Virus record (IMG/VR): IMGVR_UViG_2869947659_000006
DNA from: a virus
Taxonomy: Duplodnaviria; Heunggongvirae; Uroviricota; Caudoviricetes
DNA: 31,837 nucleotides
Reading direction: 5' to 3' (one strand)
The position numbers and the translations under genes are program-made. The notes below the pieces were generated by a model that searched no databases, had not been told where the DNA came from, and saw nothing but the letters and a program-made list of their open reading frames with translations. Positions 1 to 21,071 of the stretch are shown here, piece by piece. Within the stretch, counting starts at the first letter, position 1, and each line of letters opens with the position of its first letter.

Positions 1-375
<375 letters not shown>

Positions 376-1053
376 CAAACGTATGGCGCAGAACGTGTGT
401 GAGTTGACCGCGAGGGAGCACGATAGACGTTTTTTCCATCACGGATAAAAATTGAAAATAGCAGTCTGTGAAGAAATTGAACCCATCAAGCGCCATGATC
501 TCTTCGTAAAGCTCTTTACTGATAGGGATGCTTCTGTTTTTCTTCCCCTTCGTTCTGACAAAGGTAATTCGGTATTTGGTCACCTGTGAGCGGGTAAGAT
601 TTACGGCTTCACGCTAGCGTGCGCCTGTGCTTAAGCATATCTTAACTACCAGTGCCAGAATTGGGTCCTGACGTTTGCAATCAGCCAGCAATTCAACAAT
701 CTGCTCATGGGTAAGCCATGCCATCTCTTTTTCTGCGATGGTGAATTTTCGCATGTTCTCCAGTGGGTTCGGATACGACCATTCGCCCAGACGGGATAGT
801 TCGCTAAAAACACTACTTAGATAGCTTTGCTCCAGGTTAATGGTGACCGGGCTTGCTCCTTTCTTCCATTTCTCGCTGAAGTAGATCCCGCCTGTCAGGC
901 GTTTATCTCGATAGTGGGCAAACATTTTAGAGGTGAGATCGGTTGCAAGAGGATTGCCCAGAGCGTCAACCATCAACAGCAATTTGTCATAGACATGCTG
1001 CCCAGCTGTCAGAGATTTACCATGTAGTTTGAACCATAGCTCAACCACGTCTT
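376..1053 (-). pseudogene. int: P2/186-type tyrosine integrase remnant: N-terminal ~60 codons missing, in-frame TAG at 614-616, C-terminus cut by IS911 after ...LTHVLRHTF
   Basis: ORFs 614..1069 and 284..583 are in the same frame. They align to P2/186 Int motifs (ELW..HG, NPL.NMR, ICLSTGAR, TKGKKNR.VPIS, LTHVLRHTF). The TAG sits where homologs have Trp (GAR-W). Confidence 0.85.
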
Positions 1054-1914
1054 TGAGGTGTACTGGCAATAGCGGACACTACCATTTGTTCTTTTTTGAG
1101 CAGCCATCTGATGATATTTTCCCCTGAAGGCTGCCGGGGAGATATTCCCCAGACGAGAGTGACGACGCTGACGATTGTAGAAAATCTCAATGTATTCCCG
1201 TATTACTGAGATGGCTTCATCCCGGTTATTAAAACGATAGTGGCTCAGGCTCTCATTTTTCAGCGTTCCCCAGAAGCTTTCCATCGGAGCGTTGTCGTAA
1301 CAGTTACCTTTACGCGACATTGATGTTTTCAGACCAGACTGCTCCTGTATGACCCGGTAATCGTATGCGCAGTACTGTGAACCTCGATCAGAGTGGTGGA
1401 TTAGCCCGGCAAGTGGGCGCTGGCTCCTGAGCGCCATAAACAGGGCTTTACCTGTCAGCTCTTTTGTCATGCGCTCTCCCATGGCGTAGCCGACAATTTC
1501 GCACGTATAAACATCTTTGATGCCAGCGAGGTACAACCATCCCTCCTGTGTGGCAACATACGTCAGGTCCGCCACCCAGACCTGATTTGGTGCTGTAGGA
1601 GCGAACGTCTGGTTCAGCAGATTTGGCGCAACTGGCAGATTGTGGTTCGGGTTCGTAGTCGCTCTGAACTTGCGTTTCTGCTTACAGCGTAGCCTTAGCT
1701 CCTTACGAAGACGTGCCAGTCGGTCACGACCAACGATGATGCCATTCTCTGCCAGCTCCGTCTGGAGCCGCCGGGTTCCATATGTTTCGCGAGTGCGGAT
1801 ATGTGCCACCTTAATCTCCAGTTTTAGCCGCTCATCACTTTGTTTTCTGTCTGAGGGTTCATGCTGTACCCAGTTGTAATAACCGCTCCTGGATACACCA
1901 AATACCTGACACAT
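1009..1914 (-). CDS. IS3-family transposase OrfB (DDE catalytic part; made as an OrfAB fusion by -1 frameshift). The reading frame runs ~15 codons past the IS end into flanking DNA.
   Basis: The 301-aa ORF contains HHSDRGSQY and NAPMESFWGTLK, which are typical of IS3-family OrfB. Confidence 0.8.
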   Translation of the reverse strand: MCQVFGVSRSGYYNWVQHEPSDRKQSDERLKLEIKVAHIRTRETYGTRRLQTELAENGIIVGRDRLARLRKELRLRCKQKRKFRATTNPNHNLPVAPNLLNQTFAPTAPNQVWVADLTYVATQEGWLYLAGIKDVYTCEIVGYAMGERMTKELTGKALFMALRSQRPLAGLIHHSDRGSQYCAYDYRVIQEQSGLKTSMSRKGNCYDNAPMESFWGTLKNESLSHYRFNNRDEAISVIREYIEIFYNRQRRHSRLGNISPAAFRGKYHQMAAQKRTNGSVRYCQYTSKTWLSYGSNYMVNL

Positions 1915-2316
1915 CGCTTCAATGGGAAATTGTTGTCGCCATTGTTCGATTAACGCGTATTTTTCAGCGACTCCTGTGCAAAATACGCTGTTGCTTTTTT
2001 TAATATATCTCGCTCAAGGCGAGCTTCATTTAACGCCTTACGCAGTTGCAGAATTTCAGATTCCAGTTCAGCCACCGTGCGGGAACCAGGAGTACCGAGC
2101 CCTTTTCTGGCGGCGGTAACCCATTGTCCTAAAGTGCCTTCAGGAAGGGATAATCGGGAAGCGCCTTCACTGATCGAAAGTTGATTTTCAAGAACCGTTC
2201 TGACAGCTTCGGCTTTGAACTCTTTAGAGTAACGTTGGTTTTTTCTGCTCATTATTAGCTCCTTCTGATGCCATTCTATTTCAGGAAGGAGTGTCCGTTA
2301 AACTCAGGCTACCTCA
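1054..2316 (-). mobile_element. IS3-family insertion sequence, most consistent with IS600 (about 1263 bp)
   Basis: Terminal inverted repeats TGAGGT...CGGACACT at 1054-1080 and, reverse-complemented, at 2290-2316. orfA/orfB are arranged with an A AAA AAG slippery motif (rc of 1994-2000). No matching 3-bp direct repeat flanks the ends. Confidence 0.75.
1950..2252 (-). CDS. IS3-family transposase OrfA (IS600-like)
   Basis: MSRKNQRYSKEFKAEAVRTV...; an AGGAG ribosome-binding site lies upstream on the minus strand; the slippery A6G is near the 3' end. Confidence 0.85.
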   Translation of the reverse strand: MSRKNQRYSKEFKAEAVRTVLENQLSISEGASRLSLPEGTLGQWVTAARKGLGTPGSRTVAELESEILQLRKALNEARLERDILKKATAYFAQESLKNTR

Positions 2317-2330
2317 TCGTTTTTGCTAAG

Positions 2331-2354
2331 GCCCGCCAGAACTGGCGGGCTTTT
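2331..2354 (+). terminator. Rho-independent terminator-like hairpin (GCCCGCCAG/CTGGCGGGC followed by TTTT)
   Basis: Inverted repeat at 2331-2339 and 2342-2350, then a T-run at 2351-2354. It has no upstream plus-strand gene, so it is probably an orphan from the deleted early region. Confidence 0.4.
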
Positions 2355-2417
2355 GCGTAGATCATGCAGGTGCATGAAAACCTCTACATAAAGCGGGCAG
2401 GCGTGGCGGGGATACGA

Positions 2418-2445
2418 TTGCGCGCTAGGTATAAGTGTGTAAAAT
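2418..2445 (+). promoter_or_regulatory. Candidate sigma-70 promoter for the ATPase-HNH operon (-35 TTGCGC, 16-bp spacer, -10 TAAAAT)
   Basis: Read by eye about 40 bp upstream of the ATG at 2488; GAGAGGG ribosome-binding site at 2475-2481. Confidence 0.25.
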
Positions 2446-2487
2446 AATTCCAAAATAAATCATCACTAATGAAGTGAGAGGGTAATA

Positions 2488-4137
2488 ATGTTAGTCAAGA
2501 AAAATAAAAATTATAGTTTATATTTTTTAATTACAAATAATCAACAGATATCTGATTCTGGTAATTATATAAAAATAGTCCCATCAAGAAGCGATTGGAA
2601 TGATTTTGGATATTTGAGTAGAGTCGAAATATCTATTTTTAATAAAAAAGAGTGTAAGGATATAATTTCACTGAATGGTTATATTGGTTTTTTGAATTCA
2701 GAGGAGGAACGAAATGGAAAAGCAGAACTGATAAGGCGAGTGAAGAAAAAGGAAGAATCTAATTTAAAGGATGAGGGGTTTAATGATTATTTTGTCATGC
2801 TTCAGGATATGAATAATTATCGAAGACTAGTAAGATTTTTTGGGGTGAATGAATCCAAATATATATTAAATTTCATTAATGATGTTGTTTCTAAGAAAAG
2901 TGACGCTAGTGCAGAGAATTTGAGGAAAAAAGCAATCTCTTCTGATATCTTTAATAAATCTTTCATTAGAGAGTCTGAGTCGTATTTTACTTTCAAAAAT
3001 GCAGGAACAGTTCTTTCCGGTATTCAATATGAGGAGTTGGGTAATTTATCACAGCACATCAAGATTAGCTATTCGAATAAAGTTAATGAAGAAGATGTAT
3101 CTTATGTTTTTAATTTTGATCACGAGCATGATTTACCAAAAAGAATTTCCATAATTATAGGCGAGAATGGTGTAGGAAAAAGCCAAACGCTTAGAGAAAT
3201 CGCATTGGCTGCGATTAAAGGAAAGGATAATTTGGTGGCTGTAGTTGATTCTAACGGTGTGAGCATTGAAGAACGAATTCAAATTAGTAGGCTCATTGCT
3301 TTTTCTCCAACAAATGAAAGTAAGTGTTCATTTCCAACCGATAAAAGAATAAAATCATTGATATGGTACAAAAGATTGACTTTAAATCGTGAATCAAAAT
3401 CCAAATTAAACTTGAATGATTTAATAGTGCAACTAGCGAGGAGTAACGACGCTATCGGCTATAATCAAAGGTGGAATATATTTGTTGATGCACTGAGTGT
3501 TCTAAATAGTAACAACGATTTAGTAATCAAATGTGGCGGTGAAAATTCACCATTTGTTAAATTAAATGAGCTTAATTCTCGAGGCGAAGAATCTAGACTA
3601 TCATTATATTCTGAAATTATTCTCTCTGGCGAGCCTTTGAGGCTTATTGAAAATAAATGTTACCCTTTGAGTAGTGGGGAAATATCGTTTATTAAGTTTT
3701 GTGTACAAGTCTGTTTGTATATTGAGAATGGGACTCTTCTATTAATAGATGAGCCAGAAACACATCTCCATCCTTCATTTATTAATAAATTTATGGCATT
3801 GCTTGATAATTTATTAGAAAAGACAGGCTCTTCAGCTATCATAGCAACGCATTCGGTTTATCTTGTTCGGGAGGTTTTTAAGGAGCAAGTGACAATACTC
3901 AGAAGACGAGATGATGGGGTAATTGTTAGCGAAAAACCGAGATTGAGTACTTTTGGGGCGAATATAGGAAATATCTCATATTTTGTTTTCGGTGAGAGTG
4001 AACCAACTCAAATTTTAAATAAAGTAAAAAACAATATAATTGCAAAGAATATGTCTTGGGATGATGTTGAATCTAAATATAGCGAGGACTTATCACTTAA
4101 TGTATTAACTGCGTTGAGAAATGAAATGGGCAATTGA
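2488..4137 (+). CDS. ABC-type/AAA_21-like ATPase (549 aa) with an ~210-aa N-terminal domain of unknown function; candidate defence ATPase (PtuA-like)
   Basis: Walker A GENGVGKS, signature-like LSSGE, Walker B LLLIDEPETHLHP, H-loop IIATHS. Strongly AT-rich (about 18% G+C in a hand-counted 60-nt stretch, versus about 58% in a phage structural gene). Confidence 0.8.
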   Translation: MLVKKNKNYSLYFLITNNQQISDSGNYIKIVPSRSDWNDFGYLSRVEISIFNKKECKDIISLNGYIGFLNSEEERNGKAELIRRVKKKEESNLKDEGFNDYFVMLQDMNNYRRLVRFFGVNESKYILNFINDVVSKKSDASAENLRKKAISSDIFNKSFIRESESYFTFKNAGTVLSGIQYEELGNLSQHIKISYSNKVNEEDVSYVFNFDHEHDLPKRISIIIGENGVGKSQTLREIALAAIKGKDNLVAVVDSNGVSIEERIQISRLIAFSPTNESKCSFPTDKRIKSLIWYKRLTLNRESKSKLNLNDLIVQLARSNDAIGYNQRWNIFVDALSVLNSNNDLVIKCGGENSPFVKLNELNSRGEESRLSLYSEIILSGEPLRLIENKCYPLSSGEISFIKFCVQVCLYIENGTLLLIDEPETHLHPSFINKFMALLDNLLEKTGSSAIIATHSVYLVREVFKEQVTILRRRDDGVIVSEKPRLSTFGANIGNISYFVFGESEPTQILNKVKNNIIAKNMSWDDVESKYSEDLSLNVLTALRNEMGN

Positions 4138-5002
4138 AATGAATAAATTAAAAAGACCTGTTTTTAAAGATTATTCTGCATTTAAAAAACTATCTGCAAA
4201 TAAGAGATTAAAACATCATTCTGTTCTGAATGGACAGGATACATTTATACTTAATGCATATAGATCGTACATAAAGAATAAAGGGTATCTTAATGTCAAT
4301 TCTTGTGGCGTATTGAGTAACAATATTGCTGAAGCTTTGAGATATTATTATAACAATCCCGCAAAGTGTTTATCTATAATTGATGATATAAGAGCAGCTA
4401 ATTCTAACTCTCTATGTCCAATGTGTGGTTCAATGCATAGCGGGACTTTGGATCATGTTTTACCCAAGGAAAACTATCCAGAATTTTCTTTATTCACTAA
4501 GAATTTGGTTCCTGCTTGCAAATGTAATACTTTCAAAAGTACTACTATAGCTAATTCTGCAGGCCATCGGATGCTGCATCCATATTTTGATAATATATTA
4601 AAACAAAGATTAATATGTGCTAATTTTTCTAAATTAGGGCGAACACCTACAATTGATGTAAAAATCATAATTGACCCAATGTCACCAGAATATAACAATG
4701 TTAAGTATCATCTTGATAATGTTGTTATCAAGAATAATATTAAGGGGTATTTGTCTGAACAATGGGAGTCGTTTTACTTATATCCTGAGCTTGTTATTAG
4801 AGGACTGAATAAGAGTCTTTCTACTTATAGCGATGTATATGAGTTGTTGACTCGCGAGTTGTTGCTGTTGGATGAAAAACATAAAGGTAAAAATAATTGG
4901 AATTCGGTTTTTGTAGCTGGGTTAATTCGACCTGATGTGATTAGGTGGATACTCTGTGAATTACATTTAGGTAACAGAAGTCCAGACGGTCGTCTCATAT
5001 GA
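4121..5002 (+). CDS. HNH endonuclease-family protein (293 aa); candidate nuclease partner (PtuB-like). Start could instead be the ATG at 4139.
   Basis: CPMCG...GTLDHVLPKENYP...NLVPACKCN is a CxxC...DH...N...CxCN HNH core. It overlaps the upstream ATPase stop by 17 nt and is AT-rich. Confidence 0.75.
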   Translation: MKWAIEMNKLKRPVFKDYSAFKKLSANKRLKHHSVLNGQDTFILNAYRSYIKNKGYLNVNSCGVLSNNIAEALRYYYNNPAKCLSIIDDIRAANSNSLCPMCGSMHSGTLDHVLPKENYPEFSLFTKNLVPACKCNTFKSTTIANSAGHRMLHPYFDNILKQRLICANFSKLGRTPTIDVKIIIDPMSPEYNNVKYHLDNVVIKNNIKGYLSEQWESFYLYPELVIRGLNKSLSTYSDVYELLTRELLLLDEKHKGKNNWNSVFVAGLIRPDVIRWILCELHLGNRSPDGRLI

Positions 5003-5012
5003 TTTTTTGCAT

Positions 5013-5038
5013 CTTCAGCGTGTATCTGCACGCTGAAG
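5013..5038. other. Perfect 10-bp stem / 6-nt loop hairpin between the HNH gene and the portal gene
   Basis: CTTCAGCGTG-TATCTG-CACGCTGAAG. There is a T-run before it but not after, on either strand, so it is not a canonical terminator. Confidence 0.4.
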
Positions 5039-5108
5039 AAATTCATAAAAACTGCTGGCTATTAATAAATTTTTTAGCTGTGTTAAAGAACCTCATTTAG
5101 TGATTACG

Positions 5109-6143
5109 TTAAGTAGCTAGTTTATAACTATCAAATTTAACAATGTTCTCACTTACCAATTTATTTATTTCCATCATTCTTTTTTGTAACGGTATTAACT
5201 CGTTACGTACAAACACCAGGCTCGCCTTCTCCACATCCCCAAACCCCCCGACATTATTAGGCATAATCCCCATCATTTGCGGTGGCACACGATGCGCCGC
5301 CATCATGTCATCCCGGCTCACGTTCTTGATGTTCAGAAACTCATCCTTCGCCGCGACTTCTGACAACGGGATGATCTGAAGCCCGTCCTTTTTGCCGTTA
5401 GGCGAGTACATAAACAGATTGCGGAAGTTACCTGGTCCTTTGGCGCTTTTCATCGCATTGCGGAGGTTGTTCACATCCTCCTGGTTTTGCGCGGCATCGG
5501 TCATGTACATGATGAAGCCTGCATGACTGCCGTTAATGTAATACTATCGGCGGAACAGCGTGGCGGACTCGTTGAGCAGAGCTGACGGAATGGCAGAAAG
5601 GTAACCTGGCAGGCCGTAGATCTCTTGGTTGATGTCCGGTTCCATCAGATGAAAGATGCTTCCTTTCGTGAACTGATACGGCTGCGTGGTCATGCCGTAT
5701 TGCACAAACCAGTAGGTATCCAGGTCTAATCCGCGTCGGGTGTATTTTGCCAGAGCAGGCTCAAGAGCGATGACCTCTCCGAACCGGTTTGTGCGTTTCT
5801 CCAGGTAAGCGTTACCAAATACCAGATAATCCTGCACAAAACGTGAAAAAGCCTGCTGGCTGAGCAGCGGGTGAGGGATGTAGGTACTGATCAGAATGTT
5901 GCATTTCACCGCAATTGGTGAACTGTGATGCACGGCGGCGCGGAAGGTGCGCGCCAGTCCGTCAAAACTCACTGGCGGCTCATACCAGCGATCTGTCTGT
6001 ACGCATTCCACATAGTCCAGTAGTTCACGGCGGTCCAGAACCGGAACGGGATCGCCGAAGCTGAATGCTTCGGCTGAAGTCTGGTTTTTATGCTGGGTCT
6101 GTTTCGTCGCCGCAGCGCGGTTCTTCTTACTCTTTCCCATCAA
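5109..6143 (-). pseudogene. Q: Portal protein (P2 gpQ homolog) interrupted by an in-frame TAG at 5544-5546
   Basis: ORFs 5544..6143 and 5109..5510 are in the same frame (435 nt apart). The read-through sequence is ...ATLFRR*YYINGSHAGFIMYMTDAAQ... Confidence 0.85.
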
Positions 6144-7906
6144 AAAATCTCCACAATATTGCTGGTATTGGCGGACTCGCCCTGCAGCGGTTCGTTAAAC
6201 AGTGCGTGCATTGTTGCCCAAGCCAGATCGGCATGGCTGGCTTCTTCGCTGCGGCTGGCTTCATAGGTCGGGCGGTTGCCGCTGGCGGTGGTGGCGCGAC
6301 GGATTGCCATGAATGACTGCGCAATGTCGGTGTGCCCGGCGTCAAACTCAAGACGGCGGTGGCTGATAATGTCGTAGGCCTTGAGTACCAGGGCGTTTTT
6401 AACGTTGGGGTTGTAGACAAACTCCCGGACGGCAGGAAAAAACGCTTTCACGTTCTCGTAAACCCCGTGACCAACGCCGGTTGAGTCGATGCCGATATAG
6501 GTCACGTTGTACTGTTCAGTCAGTTTTTTGATGGCGTCAGCCTGGGCGCGAAAGTCCATTCCGCGCCACTGGTGACGCTCAAGAATGCGGAACTTACCGC
6601 CTGGCACGGCTGGCGGTGCCACCGCCACGCATCCGGCGCTGTCGCCGTTCTGCGTACCTTTTGCCGGGTCATAACCGATCCACACTTCGCGCCAGCCAAA
6701 CGGGCGCAGGGCCAGTGCATGAAAGTCGGTCCAGACTTCCCAGCTGTCCACCATGCACGCCTGCAATTCGCTGAGCGGGAACACGGACGCGAGATCGTCC
6801 ACGAACTCGCACATCAGCAGGTTCTGGTATTCGTCAGGGCTGTACTCCATGCGCAACTGGTCAAGGTCGAACAGGTTACAGGCGCCGCGCACCGCATCTT
6901 CCACGGTGACTATCTGGCGGTATTGCCCGTCTGCGCACAGCAGGCCGGGGGCCAGATTGCTGTGGGACAGGTCGATGTCCACCTTGTCAGCTTTGTTGCG
7001 CCCACGGTTGAACAGCGCACCGGACCAGAACGGATAAGCACTGTGGGTCAGACTGGATGGTGTGGAAAAATAGGTCTGCCGCCATTTCTTGTGAATAGCC
7101 ATACCGGAAGCCACTTTGCGTAGCTCCTGAAATTTCGGTATCCAGAAATATTCATCCAGATACAGGTTACCGTGATAACTCTGGGCAGTGCGGGCATTGG
7201 TGCCGAGGAAATACAGTGTGGCCCCGTTGGGAAGCACCATCGGATCGCCTTTCAGCTCCACCTCCACTTCTTTGGCAAAGTCGATGATGTACTGTTTGAA
7301 GACGTGGGCCTGTGCCTTACTGGCAGAAAGGAAAATCTGGTTACGTCCGGTAAGCAGGGCGTCAATCAGGGCTTCACGGGCAAAATAGAAGGTCGCGCCG
7401 ATCTGGCGTGACTTCAGCAGGTTGCGGATGCGGTTGGTTTTTCCGGCTTCCCACCAGTGGCGCTGGTAGTTGAACATGGAGGAATGGAAAATTTTTTCCA
7501 GCTTCTCAATCTGGTCATCGGTGAAAACATTCTTTTCAGGCTGACGGCGTGGGCCTTTGTTGCGGTTGGCGACGTTAGGGTTTAAGTCGGCTTCGTTGCC
7601 GCCATTGTTAAACTTGCCGATCCGCGCGTGGCGCTCAGACTGGCGCGCCAGCAGGTCAATCTCTTTGAAATCTTTCCCTTCTTTGTGCTCCTTCATGATG
7701 AGCTGGCAGTAGCGTGCGGCGGTGGTGAGCTGCATCTGATCCAGAGGCCCATAGTCACCCCACTTGTCGTGTTTTTTCCAGCTGTGAACGGTTGCAACTT
7801 TCTCGCCCAGCATTTCAGCAATGCGGGCTACGCGGTATCCCTGAAAGTACAGCAGCATGGCCTGCCGACGGGGATCGAGATCTGCGGGTGTCAGTGTGGT
7901 GTTCAT
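6140..7906 (-). CDS. P: Terminase large (ATPase) subunit, P2 gpP homolog
   Basis: 588 aa; lies upstream of the portal gene on the same strand, as in P2; ATG at 7904-7906. Confidence 0.9.
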   Translation of the reverse strand: MNTTLTPADLDPRRQAMLLYFQGYRVARIAEMLGEKVATVHSWKKHDKWGDYGPLDQMQLTTAARYCQLIMKEHKEGKDFKEIDLLARQSERHARIGKFNNGGNEADLNPNVANRNKGPRRQPEKNVFTDDQIEKLEKIFHSSMFNYQRHWWEAGKTNRIRNLLKSRQIGATFYFAREALIDALLTGRNQIFLSASKAQAHVFKQYIIDFAKEVEVELKGDPMVLPNGATLYFLGTNARTAQSYHGNLYLDEYFWIPKFQELRKVASGMAIHKKWRQTYFSTPSSLTHSAYPFWSGALFNRGRNKADKVDIDLSHSNLAPGLLCADGQYRQIVTVEDAVRGACNLFDLDQLRMEYSPDEYQNLLMCEFVDDLASVFPLSELQACMVDSWEVWTDFHALALRPFGWREVWIGYDPAKGTQNGDSAGCVAVAPPAVPGGKFRILERHQWRGMDFRAQADAIKKLTEQYNVTYIGIDSTGVGHGVYENVKAFFPAVREFVYNPNVKNALVLKAYDIISHRRLEFDAGHTDIAQSFMAIRRATTASGNRPTYEASRSEEASHADLAWATMHALFNEPLQGESANTSNIVEIF

Positions 7907-7952
7907 GGCACAAACCTACAGCCTTGAATGAAGGCTTTCCCCGCCTGCGGTT

Positions 7953-7970
7953 TGTGTGGTTGTCGGTACA
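7953..7970. promoter_or_regulatory. Ogr-type late promoter activator site (TGT-N12-ACA) in the divergent P/O control region
   Basis: TGTgtggttgtcggtACA. P2 late promoters carry this dyad near -55. Confidence 0.45.
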
Positions 7971-8048
7971 AATACCGCGCATTGTTTCACTGCCCCTATC
8001 ACCGCAACCATAAGGCTCCAGTAAGTTTTTTCTAACGGAGCACGGCTC

Positions 8049-8882
8049 ATGACAGTGAAAGCAAAGCGTTTTCGCATAGGGGTGGAAGGTGCCACCACCG
8101 ACGGACGCGAAATCCAGCGTGAATGGCTGGAACAGATGGCAGCCAGCTATAACCCGGCGGTGTATACCGCGCTGATTAACCTTGAGCACATCAAGTCTTA
8201 TCTGCCGGACAGCACCTTTAACCGCTACGGCAAGGTGACGGCGCTGTTTGCTGAAGAAATCACGGAAGGTCCGCTGGCAGGCAAGATGGCGCTGTATGCT
8301 GACGTTGAGCCAACGGAGTCCCTGGTGGAACTGGTGAAAAAAGGCCAGAAATTATTCACCTTTATGGAAGTCAGCCCGAAGTTCGCTGATACGGGCAAAG
8401 CCTACCTGGTCGGCCTAGCTGCCACTGATGACCCTGCCAGTCTGGGCACTGAAATGCTGACATTCAGCGCCAGTGCAGCCCATAACCCGCTGGCAAACCG
8501 CAAGCAGAATCCCGCCAATCTCTTTACCGCCGCAGAGGAAACGGTGATCGAACTGGAAGAAGTCCAGGACGACAAACCGTCCCTGTTTGCCCGCGTCACG
8601 GCGCTGTTTACCAAAAAAGAGCAGTCCGATGACGCCCGGTTCTCTGATGTGCATAAGGCCGTGGAGCTGGTCGCCACTGAGCAGCAGAACCTGAGCGCAC
8701 GCACCGAAAAATCCCTGTCTGAGCAGGAAGAACGCCTGTCTGAGCTGGAGACTGCCCTGCAGGCACAGCAAACCGCCTTTAACGAACTGGTGGACAAGCT
8801 GAGTCATGAAGACAGCCGCCAGGACTACCGCCAGCGTGCAACAGGCGGTAACGCCCCCGCTGACACTCTGACCAATTGCTGA
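8049..8882 (+). CDS. O: Capsid scaffold protein, P2 gpO homolog
   Basis: 277 aa, MTVKAKRFRIGVEGATTDGREI...; GGAG ribosome-binding site. Confidence 0.9.
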   Translation: MTVKAKRFRIGVEGATTDGREIQREWLEQMAASYNPAVYTALINLEHIKSYLPDSTFNRYGKVTALFAEEITEGPLAGKMALYADVEPTESLVELVKKGQKLFTFMEVSPKFADTGKAYLVGLAATDDPASLGTEMLTFSASAAHNPLANRKQNPANLFTAAEETVIELEEVQDDKPSLFARVTALFTKKEQSDDARFSDVHKAVELVATEQQNLSARTEKSLSEQEERLSELETALQAQQTAFNELVDKLSHEDSRQDYRQRATGGNAPADTLTNC

Positions 8883-8898
8883 TGGAGCACAAAACCTG

Positions 8899-9957
8899 AT
8901 GAAGAAGAATACCCGCTTTGCTTTTAACGCTTACCTGCAGCAACTGGCGCGTCTGAACGGTGTGGCAGTTGAAGAACTGTCCAGCAAGTTCACCGTAGAG
9001 CCGTCCGTGCAGCAGACGCTGGAAGACCAGATCCAGCAGTCCGCCGCTTTCCTGACTCTGATTAACGTCACGCCAGTGACTGAGCAGTCCGGTCAGCTGC
9101 TGGGGTTGGGAGTTGGCAGCACCATTGCCGGAACCACTGATACCACTGCGAAAGAGCGTGAACCTGTCGATCCGACGCTGATGGTCGATGTGGAATATAA
9201 ATGCGAGCAGACCAACTTTGACACGGTGCTGACCTACGCGAAGCTGGACCTGTGGGCGAAGTTTCAGGATTTTCAGGTGCGTATCCGTGACGCCATCGTG
9301 AAACGTCAGGCACTGGACCGCATCATGATCGGCTTTAATGGCGTGAAGCGTGCGAAAACCTCCAACCGTAGCGAAAACCCGCTGCTGCAGGATGTGAATA
9401 AAGGCTGGCTGCAGAAAATCCGTGAGGATGCACCGGATCACGTCATGGGCAGCACCACCACGGGCGGTGAAACCACACCGGGCGCAGTGAAAGTCGGGAA
9501 AGGTGGCGAATATGCCAACCTGGACGCCGTGGTGATGGATGCCGTCAATGAGCTTATCGACGTGGTCTACCAGGACGATGACGATCTGGTGGTGATTTGC
9601 GGTCGTGAACTGCTGTCTGACAAGTATTTCCCGCTGGTCAACAAAGAGCAGGAAAACAGTGAAAAACTGGCTGCCGATATGATCATCAGTCAGAAACGCA
9701 TGGGTGGCCTGCAGGCCGTGCGTGCGCCGTTCTTCCCGCCGAATGCGCTGCTGATCACCCGTCTGGATAACCTGTCCATCTACTGGCAGGAAGACACCCG
9801 CCGCCGTTCAGTTATCGACAACCCGAAACGTGACCGGATTGAAAACTTTGAATCCGTTAACGAAGCCTATGTGGTTGAGGACTACCGCTGCGCCGCACTG
9901 GTGGAAAACATCCAGATTAGTGATTTCAGCGCCGCCGCAGCCGAAACCGGAGCGTAA
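8899..9957 (+). CDS. N: Major capsid protein, P2 gpN homolog
   Basis: 352 aa; matches P2 gpN along its length (TRFAFNAYL..., FTVEPSVQQTL, GKGGEYANLDAVVMDA). Confidence 0.9.
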   Translation: MKKNTRFAFNAYLQQLARLNGVAVEELSSKFTVEPSVQQTLEDQIQQSAAFLTLINVTPVTEQSGQLLGLGVGSTIAGTTDTTAKEREPVDPTLMVDVEYKCEQTNFDTVLTYAKLDLWAKFQDFQVRIRDAIVKRQALDRIMIGFNGVKRAKTSNRSENPLLQDVNKGWLQKIREDAPDHVMGSTTTGGETTPGAVKVGKGGEYANLDAVVMDAVNELIDVVYQDDDDLVVICGRELLSDKYFPLVNKEQENSEKLAADMIISQKRMGGLQAVRAPFFPPNALLITRLDNLSIYWQEDTRRRSVIDNPKRDRIENFESVNEAYVVEDYRCAALVENIQISDFSAAAAETGA

Positions 9958-9960
9958 TCC

Positions 9961-10611
9961 ATGAGCCTGAGTCCCGCACGGCAGCATCGCCTGCGCGTTC
10001 AGGCTGAACAGGCCGTCCGTGAGGGTGGCAGTGTTCGCCACGCATCGGGCTATGACCTGATGCTGCTGCAACTGGCGGAAGACCGCCGCCGTCTCAAGGG
10101 CGTTCAGTCCACGGTCAAAAAAGCGGAAATCAAAGTGGAGCTGCTGCCGAAGTACGCCGCCTGGGCGGAGGGTGTCCTGGCTGCCGGAGGCGCTCAACAG
10201 GATGACGTGCTGATGTACGTGATGTTGTGGCGCATTGATGCCGGAGATTATGCCGGGGCGCTGGAGATCGGGCGTCATGCCCTGCGTCATGGATGGGTGA
10301 TGCCGCTGGGCAACCGCAACGTGCAGACCGTGCTGACAGAGGAAATGGCAGATGCAGCGCAGAGCGCAATGCTTGCCGCCACCGGCTTTGATGCCGATCT
10401 GTTGCTGCAGACGCTGGAGCTGACAGACGGTCTGGATATGCCGGACCAGTCACGGGCACGTCTGCATAAAGCGATTGGCGCGGTCCTGAGTGAAAGCAAT
10501 CCGGCTTCCGCCCTTAATCATCTCAACCATGCGTTACAGCTCGCTCCCCGCTGTGGCGTGAAAAAAGACAAACAGCAGCTGGAGCGCAGACTGCGCAATG
10601 ACAGCCGCTGA
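9961..10611 (+). CDS. M: Terminase small (endonuclease) subunit, P2 gpM homolog
   Basis: 216 aa; position and similarity (DDVLMYVMLWRIDAGDYAGALEI). Confidence 0.85.
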   Translation: MSLSPARQHRLRVQAEQAVREGGSVRHASGYDLMLLQLAEDRRRLKGVQSTVKKAEIKVELLPKYAAWAEGVLAAGGAQQDDVLMYVMLWRIDAGDYAGALEIGRHALRHGWVMPLGNRNVQTVLTEEMADAAQSAMLAATGFDADLLLQTLELTDGLDMPDQSRARLHKAIGAVLSESNPASALNHLNHALQLAPRCGVKKDKQQLERRLRNDSR

Positions 10612-10706
10612 CAGAACGTGCCCCCGCGCACGGGCGGCACGGGGTGGCGAAAGGCACAGCCACATCAAAACCCCGTCCACCGCCCTTTATTTCAGGAGAA
10701 AGCAGC

Positions 10707-11171
10707 ATGAAGTTTGTTGCGCCAGAACAGGCACCGGAACAGGCGGAAATCATTAGAAATACGCCGTTCTGGCCTGATGTGGACCTGTCGGAGTTTCGCA
10801 GTGTCATGCGCACTGACGGCACGGTGACGCAGCCGCGTTTAAAGCAGGTTGCACTGTCGGCAATTTCGGAGGTTAACGCAGAGCTGTATGAGTTTCGCAG
10901 ACGCCAGCAGATGCTGGGGTATGCGTCGCTGGCTGAGGTTCCGGCGGAACAGCTGGACGGGAAAAGTGAGCGCATTCAGCACTATTTCAACGCGGTTTAC
11001 TGCTGGGCTCGCGCCATGCTCAACGAACGTTTCCAGGACTATGACGCCACGGCATCCGGTGCGAAGCGGGGCGAAGAACTGGCGGAAGCAAGCGGTGATT
11101 TGTGGCGTGACGCCCGCTGGGCCATCAGCCGGGTGCAGGACGCGCCGCACTGCACAGTGGAGCTTATCTGA
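10707..11171 (+). CDS. L: Head completion/stabilisation protein, P2 gpL homolog
   Basis: Start at the ATG at 10707 (MKFVAPEQ...), preceded by AGGAG. Confidence 0.85.
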   Translation: MKFVAPEQAPEQAEIIRNTPFWPDVDLSEFRSVMRTDGTVTQPRLKQVALSAISEVNAELYEFRRRQQMLGYASLAEVPAEQLDGKSERIQHYFNAVYCWARAMLNERFQDYDATASGAKRGEELAEASGDLWRDARWAISRVQDAPHCTVELI

Positions 11172-11374
11172 TGAAAGTGCGTGCGCATCAGTATGACACG
11201 GTGGACGCGCTTTGCTGGCGTCATTACGGGCGCACGCAGGGTGTCACGGAGCAGGTACTGAAGGCAAATCCGGGGCTTGCCGAATACGGCCCCTTTTTAC
11301 CTCACGGGCTGCAGGTGGAGCTGCCGGACATTCCGACCACCACCACCGTGCAGACCGTCCAGCTATGGGACTGA
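11171..11374 (+). CDS. X: Tail protein X (LysM-like), P2 gpX homolog
   Basis: 67 aa, same size and position as P2 X. Confidence 0.85.
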   Translation: MKVRAHQYDTVDALCWRHYGRTQGVTEQVLKANPGLAEYGPFLPHGLQVELPDIPTTTTVQTVQLWD

Positions 11375-11377
11375 ATT

Positions 11378-11593
11378 ATGACGCTTGAGCGAATCAGCGC
11401 CTTTATCACGTATTGCATCGCCGTCGTGCTGGCCTGGCTGGGCGATTTGTCCATCAAGGATGCCTCAACGCTGGGCGGCCTGATGATTGGTGTGCTGATG
11501 CTGGCTATCAACTGGTACTACAAACACAAAGCCTACCAGCTTCTGCGCGACGGGCAGATCTCGCGGGAGGACTATGAATCCATCAATCGTTAA
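11378..11593 (+). CDS. Putative holin (71 aa, pinholin-like small membrane protein)
   Basis: Two hydrophobic segments; lies immediately upstream of, and overlapping, the endolysin gene. Confidence 0.6.
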   Translation: MTLERISAFITYCIAVVLAWLGDLSIKDASTLGGLMIGVLMLAINWYYKHKAYQLLRDGQISREDYESINR

Positions 11594-12086
11594 ACGCTGC
11601 CTTGTCGGGGCCGTGCTGGCTATTGCTGCCACGCTGCCGGGTTTTCAGCAGCTTCACACCTCCGTGGAGGGACTGAAACTGATTGCCGATTACGAAGGTT
11701 GTCGTCTGCAGCCGTATCAGTGCAGCGCGGGTGTCTGGACCGACGGTATTGGTAATACGTCGGGCGTCATTCCCGGCAAAACCATTACGGAGCGACAGGC
11801 AGCAGAAGGGCTGATCTCCAACGTGCTGCGTGTGGAGCGGGCGCTGGAAAAGTGTGTGAAGCAACAGCCGCCGCAGAAGGTGTATGACGCTGCGGTGTCG
11901 TTTGCCTTCAACGTGGGTACGGGCAATGCCTGCAGTTCCACGCTGGTGAAATTGCTCAATCAGCGGCGCTGGGCGGATGCGTGCCGACAGTTGCCGCGCT
12001 GGGTTTATGTGAAAGGTGTTTTTAATCAGGGGCTGGATAACCGCCGTGCGCGGGAGATGGCCTGGTGTTTACAGGGAGCAAACTGA
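11574..12086 (+). CDS. Endolysin, lysozyme-like with an N-terminal signal-anchor-release (SAR) segment
   Basis: Hydrophobic N-terminus MNPSIVKRCLVGAVLAIAATLPGF; resemblance to the phage 21 R endolysin (GVWTDGIGNT, C-terminal MAWCLQG). Confidence 0.85.
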   Translation: MNPSIVKRCLVGAVLAIAATLPGFQQLHTSVEGLKLIADYEGCRLQPYQCSAGVWTDGIGNTSGVIPGKTITERQAAEGLISNVLRVERALEKCVKQQPPQKVYDAAVSFAFNVGTGNACSSTLVKLLNQRRWADACRQLPRWVYVKGVFNQGLDNRRAREMAWCLQGAN

Positions 12087-12087
12087 A

Positions 12088-12465
12088 ATGAAAAAGAAAT
12101 TAATCAGCGGGCTGTTTCTGATGTTATGGATGGCGCTGTTAATCGCAGCAATGGTGTATCCGCAGGGGATTTTTCCGGTACTGGCAGCGTCCGGCGTTTG
12201 GGTAGCCTGTTTACTGACATGGGCGGTAATTCCGGTAGCACTGGCTTCGTTAATTAAGAATGGCCCGCTCTGGCAGGAGTTGAGGGCATCTTTACTGAAG
12301 ACAATTACCCGAAAAGAAAACGTATTTATCAGCTGGGTGATACGATTGCTGATTGTCGTCAGTCTCGCCTGGACGGGGTGGGCCATTACCCTGGTCTTTT
12401 ATCTGCTGACCGTTATTGCCTTCTGGATCACCCATAATCAGATGGCGCAACAGGTAGCCGCATGA
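12088..12465 (+). CDS. Lysis-associated membrane protein (LysA-like)
   Basis: 125 aa with multiple hydrophobic helices; GGAG ribosome-binding site; sits between the endolysin and Rz-like genes as lysA does in P2. Confidence 0.6.
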   Translation: MKKKLISGLFLMLWMALLIAAMVYPQGIFPVLAASGVWVACLLTWAVIPVALASLIKNGPLWQELRASLLKTITRKENVFISWVIRLLIVVSLAWTGWAITLVFYLLTVIAFWITHNQMAQQVAA

Positions 12466-12890
12466 ACCGGTTGCTGCTGGTTGTGCTGGCGTTATTATTG
12501 GCGGCGCTGGGCTGGCTGACGTGGCGGCTGGCTGATGCCAGCCAGACCATCAGCACGCAGGCAGACGAGCTGCAGAGCAAAAGCCAGGCACTGGCAAAGA
12601 GCAACAGCCAGCTTATCAGCCTGTCCATTCTGACTGAAACCAATAACCGGGAGCAGGCGCGGCTCTATGCCGAAGCAGAACAGACCAGTGTACTGCTGAG
12701 ACAACGACAACGCCGGATTGAGGAACTGAAACGTGAGAACGAGGATTTACGTCGCTGGGCTGATACTCCTTTGCCTGCTGACATTATCCGGCTGCGGGAA
12801 CGTCCGGCACTCACCGGAGGTGCAGCTTACCGTCAGTGGTTGTCCGCGAGTGACGCCGTGTCGGCTGGAGCAGGCAGCGCCGCGCACTAA
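12462..12890 (+). CDS. Rz-like i-spanin (LysB-like)
   Basis: N-terminal transmembrane segment, then a coiled-coil-like periplasmic region; ATGA overlap with the upstream gene. Confidence 0.75.
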   Translation: MNRLLLVVLALLLAALGWLTWRLADASQTISTQADELQSKSQALAKSNSQLISLSILTETNNREQARLYAEAEQTSVLLRQRQRRIEELKRENEDLRRWADTPLPADIIRLRERPALTGGAAYRQWLSASDAVSAGAGSAAH

Positions 12891-13023
12891 CGGTGATCTG
12901 AATGCGTTGCTGGATGAAACGGAGGCCGCCTGGGCGGTCTGTGCAGACAAAGTGGACATGATTATTGCGTGTCAGGAGCGAAACAGTGAACAAACCACAA
13001 TCCCTGCGCCACGCCCTCAATAA
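12733..13023 (+). CDS. Rz1-like o-spanin lipoprotein (LysC-like), embedded in and overlapping the Rz gene in another frame
   Basis: Signal peptide with lipobox LTLSGC; GTG start with GAGGA upstream; 96 aa, as for P2 LysC. Confidence 0.65.
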   Translation: MRTRIYVAGLILLCLLTLSGCGNVRHSPEVQLTVSGCPRVTPCRLEQAAPRTNGDLNALLDETEAAWAVCADKVDMIIACQERNSEQTTIPAPRPQ

Positions 13024-13417
13024 AGCAGTGCCTTATGTCCGTAATAACCCGGACAAACTGCATCTGTTTGTGGATAACGGTTCGCTGGTTGCCTCCGGGG
13101 CTAGCTCCATGTCATGGGAGTACCGCTACACCCTGAACGTGGTGATTGAAGATTTCAGCGGCGACCAGAATCTGCTGATGGCCCCGGTTTTGCTGTGGCT
13201 GCGGGATAACCAGCCCGATGCGATCAATAACCCGGCGTTACGGGAAAAGCTATTCACCTTTGAGGTGGATATTCTGCGCAACGATGTCTGTGATATCAGC
13301 CTTAACCTGCAACTGACGGAGCGTGTGCTGGTCAGCACTGACGGCAGTGTGTCGAACGTTGAAGCGGTAGCGGAACCTGATGAACCTGAAGAAATGTGGA
13401 CGGTGAAACGTGGCTGA
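12986..13417 (+). CDS. R: Tail completion protein, P2 gpR homolog
   Basis: GTG start after AGGAG; KPQSLRHALNKAV...HLFVDNGS matches the gpR N-terminus. Confidence 0.85.
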   Translation: MNKPQSLRHALNKAVPYVRNNPDKLHLFVDNGSLVASGASSMSWEYRYTLNVVIEDFSGDQNLLMAPVLLWLRDNQPDAINNPALREKLFTFEVDILRNDVCDISLNLQLTERVLVSTDGSVSNVEAVAEPDEPEEMWTVKRG

Positions 13418-13853
13418 ATTGCAGAAGGTGGACGACTGGCTGAGTGCATTATTGGCGAATCTGGAGCCAGCCGCAAGAAGCCGCATGATGCGCCAGCTGG
13501 CGCAGGAACTGCGCCGGACACAGCAGCAGAACATCAGGATGCAGCGCAATCCAGATGGCAGCAGTTATGAGCCGCGCAGGGTAACAGCACGCAGCAAAAA
13601 GGGGCGCATCAAACGTCAGATGTTTACAAAGCTGCGCACCACAAAATACCTGAAAACTGCAGCCAGCGCCGATTCTGCCAGCGTACAGTTTGAAGGTAGG
13701 GTGCAGCGCATTGCCCGTATTCACCATTACGGCTTGAGTGATCGCGTCAGTCGAAAAGGTATTTATACCATCTATGCGAAAAGGCAGTTATTAGGTTTTA
13801 ATGTCCAATCTATTGAGTTAATTGAAAGAATGTTCATTAAAAACCTAACTTGA
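13410..13853 (+). CDS. S: Tail completion/virion morphogenesis protein, P2 gpS homolog
   Basis: 147 aa with RVQRIARIHHYGLSDRVSR; the 3' end becomes AT-rich. Confidence 0.85.
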   Translation: MAELQKVDDWLSALLANLEPAARSRMMRQLAQELRRTQQQNIRMQRNPDGSSYEPRRVTARSKKGRIKRQMFTKLRTTKYLKTAASADSASVQFEGRVQRIARIHHYGLSDRVSRKGIYTIYAKRQLLGFNVQSIELIERMFIKNLT

Positions 13854-13931
13854 TTTTTATTTGTTTTCAATTGAGTGGTAATGCTGCCAACTTACTGATT
13901 TAGTGTATGATGGTGATTTTAAGGTGCTTGC

Positions 13932-14207
13932 GTGGCTTCCATTTCCATCAGATGTCCTTCCTGCTCCGCTACTGAAGGCGTGGTGCGTAACGGCAAAAGC
14001 ACTGCCGGACATCAGCGCTATCTCTGCTCTCATTGCCGTAAAACATGGCAACTACAGTTCACTTACACCGCCTCTCAGCCCGGTACGCACCAGAAAATCA
14101 TTGATATGGCCATGAATGGCGTCGGATGTCGCGCCAGTGCACGCATTATGGGCGTTGGCCTCAACACGGTTTTACGTCACTTAAAAAACTCAGGCCGCAG
14201 TCGGTAA
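13932..14207 (+). CDS. insA: IS1 InsA
   Basis: 91 aa, [23 protein letters not shown]... Confidence 0.9.
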
Positions 14208-14629
14208 CCTCGCGCATACAACCGGGCAGTGATGTGATTGTCTGCGCTGAAATGGACGAACAGTGGGGCTACGTCGGTGCTAAATCACGTCAGCGCTGGC
14301 TGTTTTACGCGTATGACAGGATACGGAGGACGGTTGTGGCGCACGTCTTCGGTGAACGCACTCTGGCCACACTGGAGCGTCTTCTGAGCCTGCTGTCGGC
14401 CTTTGAGGTCGTGGTATGGATGACGGATGGCTGGCCGCTGTATGAATCACGCCTGAAGGGAAAGCTGCACGTTATCAGCAAGCGTTACACTCAGCGCATT
14501 GAGCGACATAATCTGAATCTGAGACAACATCTGGCAAGGCTGGGACGGAAGTCACTGTCGTTCTCAAAATCGGTGGAGCTGCATGACAAGGTCATCGGGC
14601 ATTATCTGAACATAAAACACTATCAGTAA
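14126..14629 (+). CDS. insB: IS1 InsB (made as an InsAB' fusion by -1 frameshift at the A6C motif near 14186)
   Basis: 167-aa ORF overlapping insA; TTAAAAAACTC slippery motif. Confidence 0.85.
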
Positions 14630-14639
14630 GTTGGAGTCA

Positions 14640-15653
14640 TTACCCAATTGAGTTAGATATAGATAGGAATGTGTCCCCTATTTCTATAGATAGTTGTTTA
14701 ATTAAATTCATGAAAATTAAATTCTCTTCGTTGCAGTCATTTTTCAGTAGACAGCACGTTGATTGAGTAAGACTAAGGGCTGTAGCATGTGCAGGGTCAA
14801 CTAATCCGAAATTACTTGGACCTATGTTGATGACGTTCTTCAGGTGATGGGGTAGTGACAAGCTATTAGTGATTGTTTTTATATTTACATGGATGTTTTG
14901 GCATGCCCATTTAAAATATGGGCGCATGTGATCTAATTTAACTTCTTTTTCAATTGATTTAAAGCTAGCTTTGTGTTTCTTATCAGTTAAAAATGGTGTG
15001 GCCCAACCATATTGCGAATCAAAACTTCTGCCATATGTTTTAATGGCTTTATCGAACAAGTCTGTTAATTCTCTGGCCTCTTCATTACTGGGCCCTTTCT
15101 CTTGAAGCCTGCTTTCATACTTTTTATGTGACATCATTAGATAATAGCTATCATAAATTTCATGTGCTAAAAATATTTCTGAGCATTTAGGACCATGCTT
15201 GTTGATGAAATGAAGTGTTACATTTGTTTCATGCAGTGCTCTCCATCTTGCATGGGCTGCGTCAGGAAATCCATTTTTTAATAGACATAAAATCTCGTTA
15301 GAAATTGCACATGCCTTTGCGTGTAATCTAATTAGTAATTGCAAATGGTTGTTTGTGTCGGTGTCTTTATCTTGTTGTAAGCTTGTACTATATTTAGAAC
15401 CTTGATTAATACATAACTCTAACAACAACTCTAATAATCCAAAACCATCTCTCCAAATATTAATATGTCTTTTTATGAAATTTTGATGTTCTTGTTCATT
15501 TTGGGCCAGTAATTCTGCTTTTTTTTCTTTAAATTCCGACATGTATTCATTTGCTTTGAAGTCTATGAACTCCCAGTATAGCTTTTCAAAATTTTCTCTG
15601 GTTGCATCGGGAAGACTGTTTTTATTTGAGCTTAACCATTCTTTAAAATCCAT
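14640..15653 (-). CDS. AT-rich cargo protein of unknown function (337 aa) at the P2 S/V (orf30) position; 3' end altered by IS1
   Basis: About 38% G+C in a hand-counted 60-nt stretch. Convergent with S. A possible HEPN-like R-x4-H motif (RWRALH) is a weak hint only. Confidence 0.7.
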   Translation of the reverse strand: MDFKEWLSSNKNSLPDATRENFEKLYWEFIDFKANEYMSEFKEKKAELLAQNEQEHQNFIKRHINIWRDGFGLLELLLELCINQGSKYSTSLQQDKDTDTNNHLQLLIRLHAKACAISNEILCLLKNGFPDAAHARWRALHETNVTLHFINKHGPKCSEIFLAHEIYDSYYLMMSHKKYESRLQEKGPSNEEARELTDLFDKAIKTYGRSFDSQYGWATPFLTDKKHKASFKSIEKEVKLDHMRPYFKWACQNIHVNIKTITNSLSLPHHLKNVINIGPSNFGLVDPAHATALSLTQSTCCLLKNDCNEENLIFMNLIKQLSIEIGDTFLSISNSIG

Positions 15654-20708: not shown

Positions 20709-20709
20709 A

Positions 20710-21045: not shown

Positions 21046-21071
21046 TTCTCCCAAACCAACGTTTAAGAAAA
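21046..21071. repeat. Right crossover site of the invertible segment
   Basis: TTCTCCCAAACC-AA-CGTTTAAGAAAA; resembles gix (TTCCTGTAAACCGAGGTTTTGGATAA). Confidence 0.55.

Follow-up and report, generated by a model that had tools for sequence, protein, structure and literature searches.

The window, a stretch of viral DNA of 31,837 nucleotides (IMG/VR record IMGVR_UViG_2869947659_000006), opens within an IS911 element and continues through a fragment of an integrase gene, an IS600 element, a predicted cos site, two genes encoding an ATPase and an HNH-motif protein, and the portal and large terminase genes of a P2-like phage (Table 1). It belongs to a 186-like member of the P2 family (Peduoviridae) that resides in a Shigella chromosome and is in a late stage of IS-driven decay. 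The integration site is the 3' end of rybB, between rcdA and ybjL, and RybB, which lies outside the 2317-5108 region, was the only match in an Rfam scan of the window. As the reference intact relative we used the prophage of E. coli UPEC-245U (L001), which occupies the same rcdA–rybB/ybjL site and is 99.6–99.8% identical; the rest of the window prophage is collinear with it through ogr into rybB, ybjL and ybjM. Integration site, integrase and late-gene order are shared with coliphage 186 (Eganvirus) and with 186-like prophages (UPEC-245U, BL21(DE3)). However, these relatives carry a cI/apl/cII/fil/dam/A/tum early region of which the window copy has no gene, and the window copy differs further in its amber codons in int, Q and H and in its additional IS911, IS600 and IS1 elements.

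Table 1. Features at the left end of the window (dG in kcal/mol).
Feature	Coordinates	Strand	Remarks
IS911, right-hand part	1–375	-	orfA 1–339; simple insertion into the integrase gene
Integrase fragment, residues 61–287 of 350	376–1053	-	99.6% identical to the L001 integrase
IS600	1054–2316	-	1263 bp; terminal repeats; marks the 7.3-kb deletion
Phage right end, last 83 bp retained	2317–2399	+	aligns to L001 12002–12084 and to many P2/186-like phages
Predicted cos core, 55 bp	2371–2425	+	contains the 19-nt cohesive end at 2400–2418; matches to 186, P2 and P4
Low-GC (28–35%) variable cargo cassette in the cos–Q slot	2427–5160	+	composition; similarity break
ABC/AAA_21-type ATPase, 549 aa	2488–4137	+	PADLOC candidate PDC-M01A; PtuA-like
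HNH-motif protein, 287 aa	4139–5002	+	alternative start 4121; PADLOC candidate PDC-M01B
Hairpin, 12-bp stem, in the HNH–Q spacer (5003–5108, 106 bp)	5012–5039		dG -19.6 (+ strand), -18.1 (- strand); z about -5
Portal gene Q, pseudogene	5109–6143	-	in-frame TAG at 5544–5546 (AAG>TAG, residue 199)
Large terminase gene P	6140–7906	-	intact; 99.8% identical to L001, internal stops absent

The element between the integrase fragment and the resumption of phage DNA, originally described as IS600-like, is IS600. IS600, of the IS3 family, is ~1264 bp long, with TGAGG... terminal inverted repeats and orfA and orfB in -1 frames, and the element agrees in length, in both repeats (TGAGGTAGCC.../TGAGGTGTAC...) and in its reading frames (orfA 1950-2252, orfB 1009-1914). 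It shares 99.4% identity with a further IS600 copy from Shigella, and DNA near-identical to it is annotated as IS600 in RefSeq. The 3 bp on its left are CTT and those on its right TCG, so that the 3-bp target duplication is absent, as had been noted at the outset; within the same prophage, IS911 (3 bp) and IS1 (9 bp) do carry their duplications and serve as internal controls. In intact relatives the sequences that flank IS600 lie 7.3 kb apart. Taken together, the missing duplication and the separated flanks are the signature of a deletion rather than an argument against the identity of the element.

Comparison with L001 maps this deletion to the base: window positions 376-1057 correspond to L001 4023-4704 and positions 2316-13876 to L001 12001-23562, with junction sequences at IS600 of CGTCTTTGAGGTGTACTGG and CTACCTCATCGTTTTTGC, and the intervening ~7.3 kb (L001 4705-12000) is missing from the entire window. 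The missing span starts at integrase codon 60 and ends 120 bp beyond the tum/dinI-like gene, which is where phage DNA resumes at 2317. The integrase remnant matches nucleotides 181-862 of the 1053-nt L001 gene, residues 1-60 having been lost at the IS600 side; beyond the window edge, the chromosomal record CP026766.1 carries the whole of IS911 with its 3-bp duplication (L001 4023-4025), followed by the last 59 integrase codons and then rcdA and ybjJ. The predicted loss of the early region and of the integrase N-terminus is thus borne out, but not the identity of what was lost. A P2-type C-cox-B-A region had been supposed, whereas relatives of the same lineage carry cI, apl, cII, fil, dam, A (with ori) and tum/dinI, and by gene content the lost region is of the 186 type. 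A native gene order without any deletion is ruled out: wherever a relative has both int and cos, 7.3 kb lie between them.

The deletion stops short of a predicted cos site. We searched with the 19-nt P2/186 cohesive-end consensus, GGCG(A/T)GGCGGGGAAAGCA(C/T), and the sole match in the window (3 mismatches; 0.01 expected by chance) is GGCGTGGCGGGGATACGAT, 83 bp from the end of IS600, with the ATPase gene starting 69 bp downstream. The surrounding core matches 186 at 46/55, P2 at 43/55 and P4 at 42/55 positions, while every other position in the window scores below 30/55. A 55-bp core common to P2, P4 and 186 is a published concept (Ziermann & Calendar 1990, as cited in PMC5694545). The core is identical or 54/55 in L001, L002, L008 and L019 (the last from Scandinavium), its position and sequence are kept in L001, L002, L019 and ten Shigella loci, and it is near-identical in BL21 and in Klebsiella phage 4LV2017. 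Intact relatives likewise keep it in the same place, with the right-end accessory/replication region on one side and the portal gene on the other. By this sequence comparison, the predicted cos survives with its 55-bp core intact. The window has lost a GCATG...GCATG motif that P2, P4, 186 and L001 all keep at ~90-110 bp from cos, and packaging reportedly needs more than the 55-bp core. The retained right end also contains a strong terminator-like hairpin (~2328-2353; dG -23.4 kcal/mol, z -4.9).

The original prediction had found no recognisable cos before the portal gene, in an interval (2317-5108) that in fact contains it. What it said of the 106-bp HNH–Q spacer stands, as this has no cos; the site lies elsewhere, upstream of the ATPase and HNH genes. 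The search behind that prediction had covered the HNH–Q spacer only. The practical value is a correction: in the 186-like lineage cos is to be looked for upstream of the accessory cassette and not beside the portal gene.

The cassette itself is delimited by its composition and by similarity: likeness to other P2-like phages ends just past the cos core and restarts at 5161-5182, placing the right boundary within the final ~17-24 codons of Q. Intact prophages from E. coli (L001, L002) and Scandinavium (L019) have the order cos–ATPase–HNH–Q as well, and cos, ATPase, HNH, hairpin terminator, Q is the native order of the lineage, not one that arose by the deletion. The hairpin in the HNH–Q spacer probably terminates the converging cargo and Q–P transcripts in both directions; in P2 and 186 the corresponding site behind Q/W holds the terminators tQ/tW. 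Both cargo genes are intact and 99.9% identical to those of L001 (one residue difference in the ATPase, none in the HNH protein); the cargo has been retained, as proposed.

The cos-adjacent region between gpA and gpQ has already been described as a hotspot for defence genes (Rousset et al. 2022, PMC9122126; also PMC13586616), and the cosL–Q interval is described as an insertion hotspot in PMC5694545. The window fits this pattern, with a variable, low-GC candidate anti-phage cassette immediately beside cos, between the replication and portal genes. The side of cos differs, however. P2 itself has its cos ~170 bp from Q, with tin and old as cargo to the right of cos, whereas the cargo in the window, in BL21 and in 4LV2017 lies between cos and Q, retron St85 occupying this slot in the latter two; L002 has cargo on both sides. 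Phage 186 has no genes between cos and W and carries accessory orf97 on the far side of cos, the cos-adjacent slot being the same in 186-like relatives. The gpA–gpQ hotspot is divided by cos into two slots. The ATPase and HNH genes are not in the tin/old-type position, between A and cos, but on the Q side of cos, as in L001, L002 and L019.

The ATPase matches PADLOC PDC-M01A (E 3e-55), the PADLOC PtuA profile PDLC00282 (E 1e-31, residues 32-535 of 549) and the Pfam families AAA_21 and AAA_15; its match to the NCBIfam PtuA model is partial only, at 41 bits against a cut-off of 500. The HNH protein matches PDC-M01B (E 1e-33; all 25 listed PADLOC matches are to this profile), and its CxxC...DH...N...CxCN columns are invariant across 22 homologues. 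It had no Pfam match, neither phmmer nor the 22-sequence profile gave a significant match to solved PtuB structures, and a Foldseek search of the PDB with its AlphaFold model (pLDDT 72, moderate) likewise returned no significant match. The cassette resembles Septu (PtuA ATPase and PtuB HNH nuclease) in that its two genes overlap, that the first encodes an ABC-type ATPase (AAA_15/21) matching PtuA profiles full length, and that the partner, of ~290 aa, has a conserved HNH motif. It differs in that its best matches are to PDC-M01 rather than to PtuA and PtuB proper, and in that the HNH protein lacks a sequence or fold match to solved structures. PDC-M01 is an unpublished candidate system whose calls overlap Septu calls in other genomes (PMC11811056). 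We regard the cassette as a candidate Septu-like two-gene defence system, its putative function being read from profiles only; by analogy with Septu, the ATPase would sense or regulate and the HNH nuclease would be the effector. We know of no defence phenotype for a PDC-M01-type cassette.

Decay of the prophage began before the deletion. The integrase fragment has an in-frame TAG at 614-616 (TGG>TAG, residue 208) in common with Shigella relatives (L008, L012, L015 and L016), and the TAG in Q was present in all eight Shigella relatives checked. Relatives that share these amber codons still carry cI, dam, A and dinI, which argues that the prophage was already defective when the early region was lost. 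Our overall reading, which we hold to be very probably right, is of a 186-like Shigella prophage that underwent early decay and then an IS600-associated 7.3-kb loss, with cos kept and cos, cargo and Q in their native order. Nonsense mutations in int and portal gene Q would have arisen in the lineage together with IS gains (IS911 in int, in only some relatives, and IS1 beside a DUF5677 cargo gene). A later IS600-associated event would then have removed the DNA from int codon 60 through tum, ending 83 bp short of cos and leaving a single IS600, without target duplication, between flanks that are non-contiguous in intact relatives. An immobilised prophage that keeps its cargo had been predicted, and both points stand, but the deletion was not the cause, as the amber codons in int and Q predate it.

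The deletion structure is real. The window is 100% identical to CP026766.1, a 4.68-Mb record, across 11,048 bp, and the left (int/IS600) junction was found independently in two draft assemblies and one metagenome scaffold, where it was recovered by a look-up of the int fragment with the GTG-1048 start; look-ups with three other int start codons or with the extended orfB gave no match. Exact matches to the right (IS600/cos side) junction were sought in species-representative genomes and in JGI metagenomes, and the 49-aa ORF that spans it was looked up; none of these searches gave a match, and within them the junction is present only in the window and its identical record. Short-read assemblers can collapse 1.26-kb repeats, and with the right junction not independently confirmed it could be supposed that two IS600 copies were collapsed into one and that the early region is present but hidden. 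We consider this very unlikely, given the left junction in three other data sets and the three different complete or partial IS copies set in unique DNA, which, with the 11 kb of identity to a 4.68-Mb record, are typical of a finished long-read assembly. Still less credit can be given to the original prediction taken whole, on the reading that the deletion or the cargo insertion removed cos too, that the cargo sat at the tin/old position and that an IS600-mediated loss of C-cox-B-A immobilised the prophage; as to cos, cargo position and timing it is refuted. The cos-free HNH–Q spacer and the arrangement of P2, with cos close to Q and tin/old on its opposite side, speak for it; the cos at 2400-2418, the placement of the cargo between cos and Q in intact relatives, the 186-type early region of the lineage and the greater age of the int and Q ambers all speak against.

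How IS600 brought about the loss is a narrower matter. The original prediction of an IS-mediated adjacent deletion, rather than a simple insertion, holds as regards an IS600-associated deletion, but 'adjacent' describes just one of two mechanisms with the same product: recombination between two direct IS600 copies, or intramolecular IS600 transposition. If IS600 had inserted twice independently, in the same orientation, into int and at a point 83 bp from cos, RecA-dependent recombination between the copies would have removed the 7.3 kb and left one hybrid copy, a product with a single IS, non-contiguous flanks and no duplication, as is seen. In Shigella, whose genomes contain IS elements by the hundred, loss of DNA between homologous copies is the accepted route (Hawkey et al. 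2020, PMC7373316). In sister prophages, IS1, IS911, IS66-family and other IS3-family elements are already scattered over the early region, and the int/IS600 junction is present in several assemblies, although the short left-junction contigs stop inside the IS, so that its far side is not visible. Against two copies, IS600 was absent from both sites in all ten Shigella relatives examined, which thus offer no intermediate favouring either mechanism. We give this route about an even chance. An appreciable but smaller probability goes to a single IS600 at one site whose intramolecular transposition removed the neighbouring DNA up to the other, with an identical end product. Tandem-dimer or intramolecular events allow IS3-family elements, IS911 among them, to produce adjacent deletions, but the usual mode of these elements is copy-out/paste-in via a circle, which spares the flanking DNA, and our analysis found no direct evidence for such an event. 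We infer that homologous recombination between two direct copies is slightly more likely than intramolecular transposition.

The locus is a known kind of IS-driven prophage decay beside a known defence hotspot and introduces no new principle. As in Shigella genome degradation generally (Hawkey et al. 2020, PMC7373316), expansion of IS1, IS600 and IS911, nonsense mutations and IS-associated deletions occur together, and nothing sets this case apart; it is one further instance, inside a prophage. Its use is as a clean worked example of stepwise decay in a Shigella prophage, nonsense mutations and IS insertions coming before the IS-associated deletion. We also note that the remnant retains the cos-linked Septu-like cassette, an ogr/B-like late activator and a near-complete late region, and that the cI repressor is gone.

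A more speculative reading, to which we attach very little probability, is that the remnant has become a domesticated unit. Late and lysis genes freed of cI might be activated by a superinfecting P2/186-like phage or P4-like satellite and would then act, alongside the cassette, as a decoy or abortive-lysis trap; the ambers in Q and H argue against selection for virion production.

The closest relative of this prophage among complete E. coli genomes is the intact prophage of UPEC-245U (L001), which lies between rcdA and ybjL, carries the same ATPase and HNH genes, and has the order int, ydcA-like, cI, apl-like, cII, fil, three small genes, dam, A, a small gene, dinI/tum-like, and then ATPase, HNH, Q and P. 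Window 376-1057 corresponds to L001 4023-4704 (99.6% identity) and 2316-13876 to L001 12001-23562 (99.8%), and alignment of the whole window gave no match anywhere to L001 4705-12000. Junction sequences compared with those of relatives place the end of phage DNA at 1053 (±1) and its restart at 2317 (±1), and gene-by-gene comparison with the intact relative showed that integrase residues 1-60 are absent. IS600 is flanked by CTT and TCG, without a 3-bp duplication; as controls, the IS911 of the same prophage has a 3-bp duplication (seen when the window is extended with the identical record CP026766.1) and IS1 (13877-14644) one of 9 bp. The deletion is real and mappable to the base. The original prediction of an IS600-associated deletion lacking a 3-bp repeat, with loss of the integrase N-terminus, is borne out, and the alignment it had proposed, to an intact prophage at the same locus, has placed both endpoints.

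Left third of the window (from direct reading of the sequence and an ORF listing) and in-frame TAG codons
Feature	Coordinates	Strand	Remarks
Partial IS911	1-375		
Integrase fragment	376-1053	minus	
IS600	1054-2316	minus	1263 bp; both terminal repeats present
Non-coding DNA			171 bp, between IS600 and ATPase gene
ATPase gene	2488-4137		549 aa
HNH-partner gene	4139 or 4121 to 5002		287/293 aa; abuts or overlaps ATPase gene
Spacer			106 bp, between HNH gene and Q
Portal Q	5109-6143	minus	
Large terminase P	6140-7906	minus	
int residue 208	614-616		TGG>TAG
Portal Q residue 199	5544-5546		AAG>TAG
Tail-fibre H residue 122	18519-18521		CAG>TAG

Misassembly is a very improbable source of this structure: window 1-11048 has a 100% match in the 4.68-Mb record CP026766.1, and the int/IS600 junction recurs in three other data sets, two of them draft assemblies and the third a metagenome scaffold, although the right junction, sought among species-representative genomes, in JGI metagenomes and by look-up of a junction-spanning ORF, was found nowhere else and so lacks independent confirmation. 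A single IS, non-contiguous flanks and the lack of a duplication fit equally well with recombination between two direct IS600 copies and with an intramolecular IS600 event. IS600 is at neither deletion junction in any of the ten Shigella relatives examined, a result that supplies no intermediate for either route and speaks against the two-copy one. We lean slightly towards two-copy recombination because IS density is very high in the same region of sister prophages and because IS3-family elements usually move by copy-out/paste-in, without deletion of adjacent DNA, a habit that also weighs against the intramolecular route. In the window's copy of IS600, a 1-nt deletion near 1100 abolishes the orfB stop (orfB frame 1009-1914), and the transposase frame thereby exits into integrase DNA, gaining about 29 residues.

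L001, a second intact E. coli prophage (L002) and the Shigella copies of the prophage carry Phage_CI_repr, a CII/CP76 protein, Fil, Dam, GPA and a DinI/Tum-like protein, and C, cox and B are absent from all of these. The predicted loss of an early region C, cox, B, A thus stands as a loss but not in its P2-type identity; judged by these relatives, the deleted region was 186-type.

Many Shigella chromosomes, S. boydii Sb227 (CP000036) among them, encode an ATPase identical to this one, and in ten of these the early region is partly kept (cI, apl, part of cII, dam, A, dinI) and riddled with IS1, IS911, IS66-family and other elements. All three nonsense mutations found by gene-by-gene comparison with the intact relative are TAG, and those in int and Q are common to other Shigella copies: the Q amber is in 8/8 relatives checked and the int amber in all four that still hold that part of int. 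The IS911-int junction is common to three relatives. Because these ambers and this junction are shared, the IS600 deletion is a late, lineage-specific step of a long decay, and the prophage was dead before it. The prophage is immobile, as had been proposed, but the deletion is not the cause, the int and Q ambers being older. Stepwise decay agrees with the description of Shigella genomes (PMC7373316), and the prophage is of a familiar kind, decaying through IS activity next to a recognised defence hotspot. The earlier observation is partly confirmed and its interpretation partly supported, and the useful outcome is a corrected place for cos and the cargo slot.

The sequence directly after IS600 reads ...ATGCAGGTGCATGAAAACCTCTACATAAAGCGGGCA/GGCGTGGCGGGGATACGAT/TGCGCGC... 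and, when aligned to the genome ends annotated for 186, P2 and P4, each joined as a circle, this block is plainly homologous to their cos region. At 2400-2418, the 19-nt end has 3 differences from 186 and is the only match within the window (0.01 expected by chance). The 55-bp cos core, defined by P2/P4 identity in work that PMC5694545 cites, falls at 2371-2425; it agrees with 186 in 46 of 55 positions, with P2 in 43 and with P4 in 42, against fewer than 30 anywhere else in the window. The same 19-mer is in the same place in L001, L002, the Scandinavium lactucae prophage and 10/10 Shigella loci. These alignments show that cos is present between IS600 and the ATPase gene, upstream of the cargo, contrary to the claim that no cos-like sequence is recognisable before the portal; only the HNH-Q spacer had been searched, because cos of P2 lies about 170 bp from Q. 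Just 83 bp of right-end DNA is left before cos; the 55-bp core is intact, and a GCATG...GCATG motif about 90-110 bp from cos, which P2, P4, 186 and L001 conserve, is deleted. In the Shigella copy in CP026840.1 (L014), an IS1 at about 9139-9904 is inserted exactly at cos, duplicating window 2392-2401. The HNH-Q spacer carries a hairpin at 5012-5039 (12-bp stem, dG -19.6 kcal/mol, z -5.5), in the position of terminators tQ in P2 and tW in 186.

Likeness to other P2/186-like phages runs from 2317 to about 2427 and, after a gap, resumes at 5161-5182 within the last ~20 Q codons; G+C is 28-35% across 2500-5000 versus about 55% in the phage backbone. The slot between cos and Q holds retron St85 in BL21(DE3) and Klebsiella phage 4LV2017, with cos cores located upstream of the retron, and AIPR/Abi genes in Klebsiella phages. 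In Scandinavium, the same ATPase-HNH pair (82% and 80% identical) follows cos and is in turn followed by Q. The cargo, retained beside Q as predicted, is by this comparison native to the cos-Q slot; the Q-side gene order is native in other prophages such as that of Scandinavium. The gpA-gpQ region is a published P2 defence hotspot (PMC9122126, PMC13586616), and the cosL-Q interval has been termed an insertion hotspot (PMC5694545). L002 has additional genes on the far side of cos too, so the hotspot has two slots; tin/old of P2 fill the other one, across cos from the window's cargo.

The right boundary of the cargo lies inside Q (5109-5182), where the final ~17-24 codons of the portal gene are rich in AT and vary with cargo type among phages. 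At the same site, the BL21(DE3) prophage (L026, NC_012971.2, 3705-5150) bears a separate internal deletion that fuses cII to mid-A, and combines retron St85 in the cos-Q slot with a single gene between dinI and cos. Between S and V of the window lies a second cargo slot, also of low GC (34-38%), which holds a DUF5677 gene (14640-15653) whose last 11 nt are cut off by IS1 (13877-14644); L002 has a different gene there.

The ATPase matches PADLOC PDC-M01A (E 3e-55), the PtuA profile across nearly its full length (E 1e-31), and Pfam AAA_21 and AAA_15. Its partner matches PDC-M01B (E 1e-33), and the CxxC, DH, N and CxCN columns of the HNH motif are invariant in 22 homologues (38-80% identity to the query). 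In other genomes, loci called as PDC-M01, an unpublished candidate of PADLOC, overlap with those called as Septu (PMC11811056). Phmmer, profile and fold searches gave no link between the HNH protein and solved PtuB. The profile matches suggest a Septu-like pair of unproven membership, with a putative defence function.

The ogr-like gene (28764-28982) and ybjL are separated by a RybB sRNA gene (29060-29138, minus strand; Rfam score 105 bits), which places the prophage at the rybB 3' end, between rcdA and ybjL. In 186, CI represses B. Although cI is deleted here, the ogr/B-like late activator is 100% identical to that of the intact relative and the lysis cassette (11378-13023) is whole. A recombinase gene (21127-21693) adjoins oppositely oriented tail-fibre-assembly and gp53-like genes, and the stretch 20271-21693, which does not differ from the intact relative, resembles an invertible segment for host range.
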